Source of the DNA: Alphaproteobacteria bacterium
GTDB lineage: Bacteria > Pseudomonadota > Alphaproteobacteria > CALKHQ01
Assembly: GCA_965227515.1 (NCBI GenBank)
Contig: CBDDFZ010000001.1
Span: forward strand, 2,944,001-3,008,000
Reading direction: 5' to 3'
DNA: 64,000 nt
How positions within the stretch are numbered: position 1 is the first letter of the stretch; every line of letters starts with the position of its first letter. Under the pieces are notes generated by a model. The model was not told the origin of the DNA. It did not search any database and was given only the letters and a program-made list of their open reading frames with translations. This document shows positions 7,699 through 17,822 of the stretch, in pieces. The position numbers and the translations under genes were made by a program.

Positions 7699-7734
7699 GA
7701 ACATATTGACAACAATCACCTTGGCTGATATGGT
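7699..7734 (+). promoter_or_regulatory. Sigma70-like promoter overlapped by a LexA-type box
   Basis: TTGACA (7706-7711) - 17 nt - TATGGT (7729-7734); GAAC-ATATTGA-CAAC (7699-7713) covers the -35. Confidence 0.7.
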
Positions 7735-7860
7735 GCGTCTACAGTCAAAGTAGACTGTTCCTTCCGGCCAAGCCGCTGCATCGATCGTTGATCCGGCGGC
7801 CCCGGACGACCGCGGGAAAGACCGCCGGCAAACGGTGCCCGTCAGCGCCGAGGAAACGGC

Positions 7861-8015
7861 CCGCCGGCCGGCCCGCGCAGATCGCGCGCTCCCAACACGC
7901 CAACTTGCCTGCCGCCCTCCCTCGGGCGGGCCTTGGCGTGCCAGCGCGCTGGTTTTGTTTCTGGGGCGCAGACTCAGCCTTAGCGTCCAACAAGAAACTG
8001 CGTGCCGGCCGGCGG
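7861..8015 (+). ncRNA. Candidate structured 5' leader RNA of the capsid gene
   Basis: Nested complementarity: 7861-7872/8004-8015 (12 bp perfect), 7884-7890/7943-7949, 7896-7903/7933-7940, 7912-7917/7924-7929, 7957-7962/7993-7998. Confidence 0.5.
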
Positions 8016-8060
8016 TCAACCGCTCCGCGCCTTCATCAACCAACTGAAGGAGACGTGGAA

Positions 8061-8948
8061 GTGTCTTTCGAAATCTCGACTTCGCATTCGCTGGACTACG
8101 GCGGCGCGGTTGCGCTCCGCCTGCAGCAGCGCGGGTCCAAGCTGCGCCCGACGGTGGAGGAGTCCGCCTTCAGGGGCAAGGCGGCGCGCGCTGTCGACCA
8201 GGTGGGCCCGGTCTCGGCGCAGAAGCGCACCACCCGCCACAGCGACACCCCGCTGATCAGCACGCCGCACTCGGCGCGCTGGATCTACCCCAACGACTAT
8301 GAGTGGGCGGACCTGATCGACGAGCAGGACAAGGTCCGCACCATCCACGAGCCGACCAACGCCTACACCGAGAACGGCGCCAATGCCCTGGGTCGCTCGA
8401 TGGACGATGAGATCATCACGGCGTTCTTCGGCACCGCCAAGACCGGCGAGAACGGCACCACCGACACCGCGTTCGACAGCGCCAACCAGACGGTGGCGGT
8501 CGACACCGGTGCCGGCGGCGCCACCGGCCTCAACGTCGCCAAGCTGCGCTATGCCAAGCGCATCCTGATGGCCAACGAGGTCGACGTCGACTACGAGCCG
8601 CTGTTCTGCGCCATCACCGCGCAGCAGCACGACGACCTGCTAAGCGAGACCCAGGCCATCAGCCTGGACTTCAACACCCGCCCGGTGCTGGTGGACGGCA
8701 AGATCTCCGCCTTCATGGGCTTCAACTTCGTCCATATCGAGCGCCTGCAGGTCGACGGCAGTTCCTATCGCCGCCTGCCGGTGTGGGGGCGCTCGGGCAT
8801 GCACCTGGGCGTGTGGGACGACATCGAGGGCAAGGTGACCGAGCGGGACGACAAGTCCTACTCCACCCAGGTCTATGTGCGCGGCACGTTCGGCGCGACG
8901 CGGACCGAGGAGGGCAAGGTCGTCGAAATCAAGTGTTCGGAAGCGTAG
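8061..8948 (+). CDS. Phage major capsid protein (podovirus type, HK97 fold)
   Basis: LQQRGSKLR, RHSDTP, ADLIDEQDKVR, GATRTEEGKVVEIKC motifs; AAGGAG RBS before GTG 8061. Confidence 0.9.
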   Translation: MSFEISTSHSLDYGGAVALRLQQRGSKLRPTVEESAFRGKAARAVDQVGPVSAQKRTTRHSDTPLISTPHSARWIYPNDYEWADLIDEQDKVRTIHEPTNAYTENGANALGRSMDDEIITAFFGTAKTGENGTTDTAFDSANQTVAVDTGAGGATGLNVAKLRYAKRILMANEVDVDYEPLFCAITAQQHDDLLSETQAISLDFNTRPVLVDGKISAFMGFNFVHIERLQVDGSSYRRLPVWGRSGMHLGVWDDIEGKVTERDDKSYSTQVYVRGTFGATRTEEGKVVEIKCSEA

Positions 8949-8959
8949 GGGGCTGAGCG

Positions 8960-9442
8960 ATGGCTGTGACCACACAACAGAGCACGCAACTGGCGCTGAC
9001 CGAGACCGAGCCGACCGATTTCAACCCCACCCACGAGTGGGCCGGGCGGCTGCGGTTCGCGCGCTTCGATTTCACCCAGTCCGGCGCCGGCGATGCCGGT
9101 TCGGTCGCCGAGCTGCTGACCCTGCCCGCCGGTAAGGTGCGGGTGGTGCTGCCGCTGAGCCGGATCGCGTTTTCCGCGCTCGGCGCCTCGCGCACCATGG
9201 ACTTCGGCTGGAAGGCCCATACCGGCGACGACGACGTCGCGGTGGCGGCCGACCCCAACGGCCTGGATGCCGCGGTCGACGTCTCCTCGGCCGGCTCGGT
9301 CAACCCCGGCGGCACTGTCGGCGGCGGCGAGACCTATCTGTTCGAGGCCAAGGCGGGCGTGACGCTCACCGCCACCATCAACGGCGGCACGTTCCCGGAC
9401 GCGGCGACGCTGAACGGCTACGTCGTCTACGTGGTCGACTGA
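8960..9442 (+). CDS. Probable capsid cement/decoration protein
   Basis: 160-aa beta-rich G/A/T protein directly after the capsid gene, ends YVVD. Confidence 0.6.
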   Translation: MAVTTQQSTQLALTETEPTDFNPTHEWAGRLRFARFDFTQSGAGDAGSVAELLTLPAGKVRVVLPLSRIAFSALGASRTMDFGWKAHTGDDDVAVAADPNGLDAAVDVSSAGSVNPGGTVGGGETYLFEAKAGVTLTATINGGTFPDAATLNGYVVYVVD

Positions 9443-9507
9443 ACGTAGATGGACGAGCGACACCTTTCCGGCTGCGCGGTAGGGGAGAAGTGGTAGCCGG
9501 GAAACGG

Positions 9508-15723: not shown

Positions 15724-15756
15724 GCGCACTGGCACGTAGGCGCACTGGCCCGTAGG
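15709..15756 (+). repeat. Three tandem 16-bp repeats CGCACTGGC(A/C)C(A/G)TAGG overlapping the stop codon
   Basis: Units at 15709, 15725 and 15741. Confidence 0.9.
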
Positions 15757-15792
15757 CGCGGGCCTCACCCCACTTCCCGACCATTGGAGACC

Positions 15793-16284
15793 ATGATGAT
15801 GCGATCCCATGACATGGCTGACGCTACGCCGCAGGACCCCGGTCCCCTCGACCTGGGTCCATATGCCGGCGAACCGCCGGCCGACCCAAACGATTTCGAC
15901 TTCTCTTCGATCCGTCTGGACCCGGACGTGCCGATCGAGGCGCACCAGCGCGCGCTGGAAACGGTGCGGGCCTGGTTCACCGAAGCCGGCCTGTCGCTGG
16001 GCGAGGCCCAGACGCTGGTCAACCGCTTCAACGAGGCGATGGACCCGTACTCCAGTCGACCCGAAGGCGAGGGCGACGACCTCACCGCAGCCGCGCGCCA
16101 TTACCTGACCGTCCGCTGGGGCGATCATTTTGAACAAAACATGAATATCGTTGCCGACGCCATCCAGCGGCTGGGCGGCAATGCGCTGGAGGCGATGCTG
16201 CGCGCCGCCCACCTGCGGTTCGACCCGTTCGTCGTGCGCACGATCTTCAATGTCGCCGCGCGCAAGGGATGGGCCGACGCATGA
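15793..16284 (+). CDS. Capsid scaffolding-like protein
   Basis: WFTEAGLSLGEAQ.L and L..RWGDHFEQNM..V..AI..LGG..L..ML....L..DP.VV pattern resembles podophage scaffolds. Confidence 0.55.
   Translation: MMMRSHDMADATPQDPGPLDLGPYAGEPPADPNDFDFSSIRLDPDVPIEAHQRALETVRAWFTEAGLSLGEAQTLVNRFNEAMDPYSSRPEGEGDDLTAAARHYLTVRWGDHFEQNMNIVADAIQRLGGNALEAMLRAAHLRFDPFVVRTIFNVAARKGWADA
16132..16146 (+). promoter_or_regulatory. Intragenic LexA-type box
   Basis: GAAC-AAAACAT-GAAT; same spacer as the 17808 box; AT-rich patch inside a GC-rich CDS. Confidence 0.5.
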
Positions 16285-16925
16285 CGGCACAGCCCAACAC
16301 CATGCCCGACCGGCCGCGCGCCGGGACGGGCAACGGCCTGATCGCCGACGTAGACCTCGGCGAACGGCTGGATGCCCTGTTGGCCAAACGCGATGAGGCA
16401 TTTGCACGACTGACCGACCTGGAAGCCAAGCGCGCCCATCTGGCCCTGCAGGTGCACGGTGGCGACAAGGCGGCGGAGAAGGAGCTCAACCGGACCCGCT
16501 CGCAGATTGCCCGGCAGTCGGCCCTGGCTGCCGATCTGGACGCCGCCGTCGATGTCGCCCACGCCCGAATCGCAGAGGCCGATGGCTCGGCGGCGGCGGT
16601 CGCGGACGACAGCATGGCATCAATCGTGCGTGAACTTGGCGCCCGGCGGTTGGAGCTGGCGCGCGAGATCGAGGGCCACGTCGAGTCGGTCGCCGAAGCC
16701 TATCGCCGCATGCTGCGCCTGACCGACGAATTCCGTCTGGCCGGGCTGGCAAATGGCCCGCTTGGCGCTGAACTCAACCGCTTCCGCGACCGGTTTGGCT
16801 TCTACCTGGAGACCATGCTTGACTTTGTGGGAGGCAGCCCTGTTCATTGCAGCCATCCGCACTATCGTCGGCTGGCGGCATTGCTGCTGGATGGCGATGC
16901 GTTGGCGTCGTTGCGGTCGCGTTAG
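16281..16925 (+). CDS. Hypothetical coiled-coil phage protein
   Basis: ATGA overlap with the previous gene; Ala/Leu/Arg heptad pattern. Confidence 0.7.
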   Translation: MTAQPNTMPDRPRAGTGNGLIADVDLGERLDALLAKRDEAFARLTDLEAKRAHLALQVHGGDKAAEKELNRTRSQIARQSALAADLDAAVDVAHARIAEADGSAAAVADDSMASIVRELGARRLELAREIEGHVESVAEAYRRMLRLTDEFRLAGLANGPLGAELNRFRDRFGFYLETMLDFVGGSPVHCSHPHYRRLAALLLDGDALASLRSR

Positions 16926-17063
16926 CAGGCTGGCGCACCGGGGCAGCAGAGGGCCGGCCGGGGCGGTTGCCTTATTGGATCGGCGTCAGGTAATGACACG
17001 CGTATCGAAGGCGCAAATGCTATCCAGAGCGCAGCCAGGATCGCGCTGCTTCGGGACCACCTA

Positions 17064-17756
17064 GTGCAAGAATTCCTCGCCAATATCGTCACCACCTTCG
17101 GCGACCTCGTCGCATCGTTCGGCTACATCGTCATCGGGCTGGTCATTCGCCGGCTGTGGGCGGTCATCCTGCTCGCGGTGGTGTGGGCGGTCATTTCGTA
17201 CGGCCTCTATCAGTCGGACCAGCTCGGCATCGAGATTACCGAGGTGGTCAATCAGATCGACTGGGACGCGGCGCAGGAGACGTTGCCGATACGCCTCGTC
17301 ATCGCGGTCGTCATCAGCGCGTTCGCCTGGTTCTGCATGAGCCTGATGATCGGCAGCTTCCGGCCGCGCAAGCGGCGCCGGGCGGCGGCCGCATCGGCGC
17401 GGGAGATGCCGAGCGACAAGCTGCCGCCGCTGCCACGCGGTGCCGGCGGGGGCAGGGGCGATGGCCGGCAAGAGCCGTCCTTCGTCGCGCCGGCGCCGGA
17501 TGCCGGTCAGGTCGCGGCACCAGTGGCCACGGCCGCTGCCGCACCGGCGATGATGGAGCCTGCGGCACCGCCGCCGATGACGCCGCCCATACCGCAGCAG
17601 CCGGCCGAGGCGCCGGTGGCTCCCCCTGCGTCTGGCGACGATGCCTACGGTCCGGCGGCCACTGCCGACAAGCTGGGGCGCATCTACTCCGAGCGGGAAC
17701 TGGACGACCTGATCGCCGCCCTGCAGGAAAAGCGCGCGCGCCCCTCCGAAGACTGA
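17064..17756 (+). CDS. Hypothetical membrane protein with Pro/Ala-rich tail
   Basis: About three N-terminal hydrophobic segments, low-complexity linker, short helical C-terminus. Confidence 0.7.
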   Translation: MQEFLANIVTTFGDLVASFGYIVIGLVIRRLWAVILLAVVWAVISYGLYQSDQLGIEITEVVNQIDWDAAQETLPIRLVIAVVISAFAWFCMSLMIGSFRPRKRRRAAAASAREMPSDKLPPLPRGAGGGRGDGRQEPSFVAPAPDAGQVAAPVATAAAAPAMMEPAAPPPMTPPIPQQPAEAPVAPPASGDDAYGPAATADKLGRIYSERELDDLIAALQEKRARPSED

Positions 17757-17807
17757 CCGGTTGCCGGGCTGCCTGATGGCGGTCCGTCCGGTTGCGTCTC
17801 GAAAAAG

Positions 17808-17822
17808 GAACAAAACATGACC
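17808..17822 (+). promoter_or_regulatory. LexA-type box overlapping the tail-fibre start codon
   Basis: GAAC-AAAACAT-GACC. Confidence 0.55.

Follow-up and report, generated by a model that had tools for sequence, protein, structure and literature searches.

Direct control of a phage promoter by LexA, through which the SOS response induces phage functions, is known from CTXphi, GIL01 and the Tum antirepressor of coliphage 186, and LexA-repressed colicin operons as well as SOS-induced tailocins are examples of a damage-induced, lysis-linked release of a toxic or phage-like product. In Alphaproteobacteria, the LexA motif is the direct repeat GTTC-N7-GTTC (available text of PMC8565304). Among the gene transfer agents (GTAs), RcGTA depends on LexA through cckA (PMC9638019, PMC6363796), and for the GTA cluster of D. 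shibae there is an in silico prediction of LexA sites (PMC6473078); as far as the available parts of PMC9638019 and PMC6473078 go, the known LexA-GTA link is indirect or only in silico. Both LexA control of phage functions and a connection between LexA and GTAs are already known. In this study, we analyzed a stretch of 64,000 nucleotides of an alphaproteobacterial genome (assembly GCA_965227515.1, contig CBDDFZ010000001.1, positions 2,944,001-3,008,000; in the following, the window), which carries the structural half of a phage-derived element with LexA-type boxes along its genes. These boxes are probably LexA operators on the genes of a non-autonomous phage-derived particle, which would thereby be under direct SOS control.

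The genome of origin (G000; contig C1 of which contains the window) has two replicons, 5.52 Mb and a G+C content of 66.6%. It was compared with three further genomes of the same family (G001, G002 and G003), all belonging to one sister genus, the assemblies of G002 and G003 being fragmented. The element consists of two loci. Locus B (7.7-22.5 kb of the window) encodes a capsid, a T7-like tail, a tail fibre and lysis genes, while locus A, with the regulator and packaging genes, lies outside the window at 2,632.4-2,638.6 kb of C1, 315 kb away from locus B.

LexA-type boxes along the structural genes

The original prediction named five boxes on locus B. All five strings were confirmed at their positions (Table 1), on the plus strand, in one shared orientation and with A/T-rich spacers, and the box at 12732 is indeed a perfect GAAC-N7-GAAC repeat. 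Box 1 overlaps a TTGACA hexamer as described: the -35 of the promoter at 7706 falls inside it, and this promoter, located ~340 nt upstream of the capsid gene, is the sole strong promoter-like site upstream of that gene. The half-sites in the region 7688..7713 follow each other in an 11-nt phase (GATC at 7688, GAAC at 7699, CAAC at 7710). Box 2, which lies behind a terminator hairpin, had been placed just upstream of a promoter-like pair; a TATAAT (9596-9601) stands 24 nt downstream, but no -35 was recovered for it in the promoter scan. Box 3 ends 20 nt before the ATG of the nozzle gene, and its TAGAAC resembles the -10 of the lexA and imuA promoters of the family, the promoter candidate being a weak one recognized by eye. 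Box 5 spans the Shine-Dalgarno-like AAGGA and the start codon of the tail-fibre gene. The statement that four boxes sit at gene starts is inexact, box 1 being distant from the capsid gene, box 2 lying 53 nt before the first cargo open reading frame (ORF) and box 4 being intragenic. Three more sites of the module, at 11964, at 19523 and, in phase with box 1, at 7688, had been overlooked. Outside the module, where no comparable box had been noticed, the window does contain a perfect one at 28809 on the minus strand, but it has a GC-rich spacer and a score below 11 in the matrix described below.

The assignment of this repeat to LexA agrees with the SOS promoters of the lineage itself. In all four family genomes, the lexA promoter carries GAAC-N7-GAAC over its -10, followed in phase by GTTR-N7-GTTC, and recA carries GTTC-N7-GTTC in the three genomes of the sister genus. 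The recA site of G000 (GAAC-ATAATGT-GCAC) has one mismatch, as has the second lexA site. Two boxes each are found on the imuA-imuB-dnaE2 promoters of the sister genus (3/3 genomes), the distal one just upstream of the -35 and the proximal one, which overlaps the start codon, beginning at the TAGAAC of the -10. Judged from these promoters, the motif used by LexA of this lineage is GAAC-N7-GAAC/GTTC-N7-GTTC; a different motif, which had been named as an objection in advance, is not what lexA, recA and imuA carry. The imuA promoter of G000 has GAAC words spaced by N4 and N6 and not by N7, unlike in the sister genus. Beside perfect non-coding boxes of G000, polA, mfd, nrd and genes for an Lhr helicase and an SNase-like nuclease were found, but also the unrelated gatB, mraZ and phoU, so that these gene neighbors are suggestive only as a check of the regulon.

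By simple mismatch counting, the excess of boxes is modest. Perfect boxes occur 68 times in the genome and sites with at most one mismatch 2884 times. The window holds 3 perfect boxes against 1.53 expected, a number reached in 20 of 100 shuffles, and between 7688 and 17822 there are 8 sites with at most one mismatch on the plus and 4 on the minus strand. In the non-coding sequence of locus B, 6 such sites compare with a mean of 2.45 in dinucleotide shuffles. Since mismatch counting proved uninformative, a weight matrix trained on operators was adopted. It covers 19 nt and was built from 18 SOS operators of the four family genomes (two of lexA, one of recA, two of imuA), the five operator families being weighted equally and no phage-gene sequence being used, and was applied to every genome position (11 million). 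An earlier matrix from 12 sites was dropped as too soft (155 sites scoring at least 12, mostly coding) and rebuilt with the imuA operators.

With this matrix, lexA's own site scores 21.6 and that of recA 15.6. Boxes 2-5 lie between 17.3 and 19.4: box 2 scores 19.36 (5th best genome-wide), box 4 18.33 (7th), box 3 18.06 (8th) and box 5 17.26 (11th), followed by the site at 19523 with 16.24 (16th), whereas box 1 reaches 12.77 and the in-phase site at 7688 14.17. The box on the second promoter of locus A scores 21.6. Ranks of 5 to 16 for boxes 2-5 and 19523 are not background-like, which answers the objection that the sites might be indistinguishable from the rest of the genome. Six of the 16 best genome positions fall in the two loci of the element. 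Among the best non-coding matches, the element, which makes up 4,761 of 975,965 non-coding positions, contributes 4 of the top 10 and 6 of the top 30 (binomial P = 1e-7 and 7e-9). As composition control, 150 column-permuted matrices retaining the A/T preference gave means of 0.15 and 0.34 with maxima of 2 and 3, respectively. The module boxes rank among the best matches of the genome, and the excess by matrix is strong.

This control bears on a different explanation of locus B, namely that its boxes are by-products of A/T-rich promoter and ribosome-binding sequence in a GC-rich genome, with any action of LexA confined to locus A and the structural module driven solely by the regulator of the element. 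Matrices of the same composition never matched the observed enrichment (0/150), box 3 is perfect within a 71-nt spacer while there are only 27 perfect non-coding sites in 929 kb, and boxes 4 and 5 have in common the 13-mer GAACAAAACATGA, which is found nowhere else in the 5.5-Mb genome, so that these two boxes are related to each other. On the other hand, local shuffling gives a borderline result (49 of 1000 shuffles have at least as many sites as observed), box 5 reads as AAGGA-N-ATG and box 4 is coding. Also, similar GGAAC-containing start regions are found in G002 and G003, and it is only for box 2 that the position is conserved in relatives. We consider this explanation rather improbable.

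The conservation of single boxes in homologous loci, which had been suggested as a check, gave a divided picture. At the box-2 junction, G001 likewise has a site with at most one mismatch (score 18.07) and G003 has two in tandem (16.93 and 14.63), so that the position is kept in 3/3 genomes where the post-capsid junction is available, and the boxes of locus A are found in 4/4. Boxes 1, 3, 4 and 5 were found in none of the available relatives: the homologous sequence of G001 has neither box 1 nor a good -35, the spacers that correspond to box 3 in G001 and G003 are GC-rich and lack it, and box 4 is not in G003.

Besides this lack of counterparts to boxes 1, 3, 4 and 5 at homologous positions in G001-G003, several further points weigh against the boxes being LexA operators. 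Four of the five carry one mismatch, and mismatch counting with local shuffles gives P of ~0.05 for locus B and 0.02 for locus A. Box 4 lies within a conserved ORF (15784-16284), where it forms the codons F-E-Q-N-M-N in alignment with G003; a codon-rarity test on it (four rare codons, product 3e-4) was uninformative, many windows of the module being lower. Boxes 4 and 5 both contain an ATG and could be translation-start sequences, and the matrix may be biased towards sequences of this kind, since its training set includes the proximal imuA operators, which extend over start codons. The matrix itself is based on five operator families of four related genomes, and gene coordinates as well as the division into coding and non-coding sequence come from our own rough gene caller. 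Upstream of ssb, uvrA, dinB and imuA of G000, no site with at most one mismatch was seen, so that either the motif predicts classical SOS genes poorly in this genome or few genes belong to the regulon. Finally, the distant homologous loci G020, G021 and G040, whose LexA motif is unverified, are devoid of perfect boxes and contain 0, 2 and 0 AT-rich boxes with one mismatch, respectively.

Further LexA-type sites with top scores were found at C1:2760565, C1:3836240, C2:543406 and C2:88176 of G000. They precede small genes of no known family and an SNase-like nuclease gene, which may be regarded as candidates for unnamed SOS genes. The boxed locus at 543 kb of C2 contains a gene for a lectin-fold protein, which was rejected as a relative of the lectin-fold protein of the module (E = 0.16; no PHROG match).

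Regulator, packaging genes and inheritance of the element

Besides a 140-aa DUF6456 (Gaf-type) regulator and a 113-aa protein, locus A encodes a terminase large subunit split over two adjacent ORFs, a portal of the T7 type, scaffold-like and Bbp19-like proteins and one further small protein. Five genes of the element were checked for copy number in G000 (capsid, nozzle, portal, tail tubular protein A and DUF6456), and each of them occurs once. The first terminase ORF gives the ATPase part (272 aa) and the second the nuclease part (247 aa), with a stop and one base between them. The same two-frame arrangement in G001 makes a conserved split or a programmed shift likelier in appearance than a fresh frameshift. 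Directly 3' of the scaffold-like gene, a gene for a protein with RTX calcium-binding repeats was observed (C1:2638589-2639665; L039:8590-9666).

Two promoters of locus A carry boxes, and these are conserved across the two genera. The DUF6456 promoter has a perfect LexA-type box in 4/4 genomes. In G000 it is GTTC-GTTTAAT-GTTC and occupies the 17-nt spacer between -35-like and -10-like hexamers, whereas in G001, G002 and G003 it is GAAC-N7-GAAC, in the opposite orientation and with three different spacers. At the packaging promoter (promoter 2), a perfect GTTC-N7-GTTC abuts the TTGACA of the -35 in G001 and G002, while G000 and G003 have a box with one mismatch; that of G000 lies over the -10 and has the same 15 nt as the distal imuA box of G003. 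The promoter hexamers of G000 in this locus were read by eye. Retention of the half-sites while the spacers drift gives these boxes the look of real operators. In a 45-kb stretch of G001, the first 30 kb (all of locus A and the following host genes) contain only two perfect boxes, those of the regulator and packaging promoters, and three of the five matrix matches of at least 11.5 in the whole stretch are the regulator, packaging and post-capsid promoters. The placement of boxes on core promoter elements (the -35 at box 1, the spacer of the G000 regulator promoter, the -10 of promoter 2) speaks for direct SOS control.

A possible alternative switch appears to be lost in G000, which points in the same direction. 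In 3/3 genomes of the sister genus, a CI-like repressor gene (helix-turn-helix and Peptidase_S24) is divergent from the DUF6456 gene, and the intergenic region shows a palindrome of the type TGCGA-AAA-TCGCA next to the LexA box. The genome sequence of G000 (completeness 99.67%) gave no relative of this repressor. The DUF6456 gene is single-copy in G001 as well, and among the control genomes it was found only in Caulobacter. Homologues of GafA are annotated as DUF6456 proteins (PMC9638019, available part). Small DUF6456 proteins are also common in viruses, so that the regulator may simply stem from the ancestral phage.

Other DNA-binding proteins have to be considered for the same words. A protein different from LexA, either the DUF6456 regulator, working as an activator from the -35 or from directly upstream of it, or a host binder of direct repeats such as CtrA, might recognize GAACA-N6-GAAC, in which case the likeness to LexA sites would be mimicry or coincidence. 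Positions typical for an activator, at or just upstream of a -35, are indeed seen for box 1, box 2, promoter 2 of G001 and G002 and the distal imuA boxes. Moreover, a perfect CtrA-type TTAA-N7-TTAA (C1:2632553-2632567), one of 22 genome-wide, overlaps the box of the regulator promoter in G000. We nevertheless give this possibility little weight. The same words stand on the lexA, recA and imuA promoters, which are unexpected targets for a phage regulator, and the Caulobacter GafZ/GafY elements, a GC-rich palindrome and ACTATG in the available part of PMC11150451, are unlike GAAC repeats. TTAA-N7-TTAA with at most one mismatch is absent from locus B of G000 and from locus A of G001; locus B of G001 has a single one, with one mismatch.

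Both halves of the element are syntenic in G001, where they are likewise split between scaffold and capsid, here by a gap of ~18 kb with ordinary host genes; the element is split by host genes in both genera, and the two-ORF terminase is also common to both. For eight element genes compared between G000 and G001, a set that leaves out one terminase alignment, synonymous divergence (dS) was 0.43-0.80 and the ratio of nonsynonymous to synonymous divergence (dN/dS) 0.32-0.68, while the host genes lexA, recA and uvrA gave 0.30-0.98 and 0.10-0.28, respectively. The element is under purifying selection at host-like synonymous divergence. Synteny, the shared split and this divergence argue for a vertically kept, non-autonomous element and not for a recent prophage, an assessment that covers four genomes of one family.

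These data also bear on the view that the element is a decaying prophage remnant, its boxes being left over from an SOS-linked switch that the phage ancestor once had and without a function today. Such a remnant would fit the terminase in two frames, the IS481 copy and tRNA-Pro at one end of locus B, and the failure to find the portal in G002 and G003 (two of the three relatives searched) with the query used. It would also fit the gene inventory of G000, since no integrase, replication or repressor gene was found and neither locus has replication, integration or lysogeny genes. It is at odds with the structural ORFs, all of which are intact as far as tested, and with their dN/dS values, with the fact that the two-ORF terminase and the split between scaffold and capsid are common to both genera, and with the retention of the half-sites of the boxes while their spacers change. 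Decay is accordingly a poor candidate in our view.

Gene content of the structural locus

The left flank of locus B consists of host sugar-transport genes and a gene for a LacI-family regulator, the right flank of tRNA-Pro, an IS481 copy and chemotaxis and sigma genes. The capsid gene (80% amino acid identity to G001, dN/dS 0.32) is preceded by a leader of ~320 nt (7735-8054), which contains a terminator-like hairpin and, at ~7812-7830, the short hairpin GGGAAAGACCGCC, conserved with G001; the leader could hold a loading or anti-termination signal. Behind the box-2 promoter lies a cargo slot bounded by two terminators, one at about 9510 and one at 12079. This slot is variable: a gene similar to those for glyoxalase or bleomycin resistance occupies it in G001, G003 has nothing at this place, and among contigs from four DNA runs compared with positions 7600-18000, which show close relatives, one carries a shorter insert. 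Portal, terminase, scaffold, integrase, repressor and replication genes were not found in locus B. NCBIfam gave no names for the element proteins, and Rfam found only the tRNA.

The IS481 copy (rve gene, 22637-23797, minus strand) was considered as a part of the element, since it is syntenic in G001, but was rejected as an insertion sequence with four copies of 99-100% identity in G000. A relative with 78% identity was observed at the corresponding place in G001.

Table 1. Coordinates of boxes, genes and other features. Positions refer to the window unless a contig or locus is named.
Feature	Position	Strand	Remarks
Box 1	7699..7713	+	GAAC-ATATTGA-CAAC; one mismatch (second half CAAC)
Sigma-70-type promoter	7706..7734	+	TTGACA-17-TATGGT; 10/12 matches; TG before -10
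Terminator-like hairpin and T-run	7933..7960	+	within capsid leader
Major capsid protein	8055..8948	+	Phage_capsid_2, phrog_3437
158-aa protein, no known family	8966..9442	+	next to capsid gene also in G001 and G003
Box 2	9558..9572	+	GAAC-ATAAGAG-GAAA; one mismatch (GAAA)
Cargo	9625..12062	+	three ORFs of no known family (Pfam, PHROG, NCBIfam); GC 0.51
Terminator-like hairpin and T-run	12079..12110	+	closes cargo slot
Tail tubular protein A	12137..12694	+	phrog_394
Box 3	12732..12746	+	GAAC-AAATAAC-GAAC; perfect
Tail tubular protein B / nozzle	12766..14817	+	Phage_nozzle, phrog_376; 67-70% aa identity in G001-G003
Five small ORFs	14829..17756	+	include gp14-like internal virion protein (15301-15723)
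Box 4	16132..16146	+	GAAC-AAAACAT-GAAT; one mismatch (GAAT)
Box 5	17808..17822	+	GAAC-AAAACAT-GACC; one mismatch (GACC)
Tail fibre and lectin-fold virion protein	17817..19570	+	T7 tail-fibre N-terminal domain
Additional site	19523..19537	+	GAAC-TGCAACG-GAAC; perfect; coding, 30 nt before next gene start
Lysis genes	20348..21719	+	spanin-like protein; amidase with peptidoglycan-binding domain
tRNA-Pro(GGG)	22516..22592	+	right end of module
Split terminase large subunit	G000:C1:2633686-2635249 (L039:3687-5250)		two frames
CI-like repressor gene	L074:480-1196	-
CI-like repressor gene	G001:C2:72788-73450
CI-like repressor gene	G002:C114:2154-2846
ssb upstream region	G000:C1:3324264-3324870		scanned for boxes
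uvrA upstream region	G000:C1:3317880-3318200		scanned for boxes
imuA upstream region	G000:C1:2517970-2518210		scanned for boxes

Proposed regulation and comparison with known systems

LexA binding and repression are inferred from the sequence data, as are the part played by the DUF6456 protein and whatever function boxes 4 and 5 may have. In undamaged cells, LexA would occupy the core promoter of the regulator gene and the promoter of the packaging operon at locus A, and at locus B the promoters upstream of the capsid gene (box 1) and downstream of it (box 2) as well as the site in front of the nozzle gene (box 3). DNA damage would activate RecA and lead to self-cleavage of LexA, whereupon the regulator, packaging and locus-B promoters would open. 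The DUF6456 protein could then drive the late genes or carry RNA polymerase past the terminators of the capsid leader and the cargo slot (7933, ~9510, 12079). The variable cargo slot behind the LexA-boxed post-capsid promoter suggests damage-induced accessory functions.

A more far-reaching interpretation, which we put forward tentatively and consider clearly less probable than direct SOS control as such, is that of an independently domesticated T7-like podovirus that became a two-locus, DUF6456-regulated GTA-like system. In G000, the CI-type repressor would have been lost and control passed to the host, with LexA boxes on promoters of regulator, packaging and structural genes in addition to a CtrA-type box on the regulator promoter, and particle release would be a direct arm of the SOS response. 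The proposal that the module was rewired to host SOS control as a sign of domestication finds support in the locus-A boxes on two promoters in 4/4 genomes, in the failure to find a CI-like repressor in G000 and in purifying selection, but boxes 1, 3, 4 and 5 are specific to G000. If LexA indeed controls these promoters, the coexistence of a CI-like repressor with LexA boxes in the sister genus, and of host boxes only, with extra ones along the structural genes, in G000, would represent a hand-over in progress and a concrete example of a prophage taken over by host regulation.

Compared with other alphaproteobacterial SOS boxes, repeat and spacing are the same here, and the host promoters of lexA, recA and imuA carry the repeat too; the difference is that the densest cluster of strong matches lies on phage-derived structural and packaging genes and not on repair genes. 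In CTXphi, GIL01 and phage 186 with its Tum protein, LexA gates an early switch or the antirepressor of a complete phage. The boxes described here are found instead on the promoters of a late regulator and of packaging genes and along structural genes of an element for which no repressor, integrase or replication genes were found in G000. In gene content, the element also differs from an SOS-inducible temperate prophage with a CI-type repressor, as no repressor was found in G000 and no integrase in either locus. The analogy to colicin-type weapons drawn in the original prediction fails on gene content: unlike colicins and tailocins, the element retains capsid, portal and terminase, and hence appears to be built to package DNA and not to be a headless weapon.

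The GTAs are closer in composition. Like RcGTA and CcGTA with their regulators GafA and GafYZ, the element has phage-derived head, tail and lysis genes in more than one locus and no replication or lysogeny genes. Structural, packaging and lysis genes occur without replication, integration or lysogeny modules, the 315 kb between the loci preclude packaging as one unit, and vertical inheritance under purifying selection was found in four genomes of one family, all of which are features of the GTA class. The CtrA-type box on the regulator promoter of G000 is a further likeness to the RcGTA and CcGTA systems, and the terminators in the capsid leader and within the operon are reminiscent of GafZ anti-termination (available part of PMC11150451). 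Descent from RcGTA is not indicated: its marker GTA_TIM (PF13547) was found in 0/2 genomes (G000 and G001), the Caulobacter control being positive, and capsid, portal and tail are of the T7 type.

In the titles and opening lines of abstracts covered by our literature search, no description was found of a T7-like, two-locus, Gaf-type-regulated element with a lost CI-type repressor and with its strongest LexA matches outnumbering those of repair genes. If direct SOS control is correct, a phage-derived particle machine is wired into the host SOS regulon directly and not via a phage repressor. In contrast to RcGTA, with its siphovirus-type structural genes, the structural genes of the element are of the podovirus type, and under direct SOS control the element would be a candidate case of GTA-like elements arising in Alphaproteobacteria by a second route, from a podovirus.

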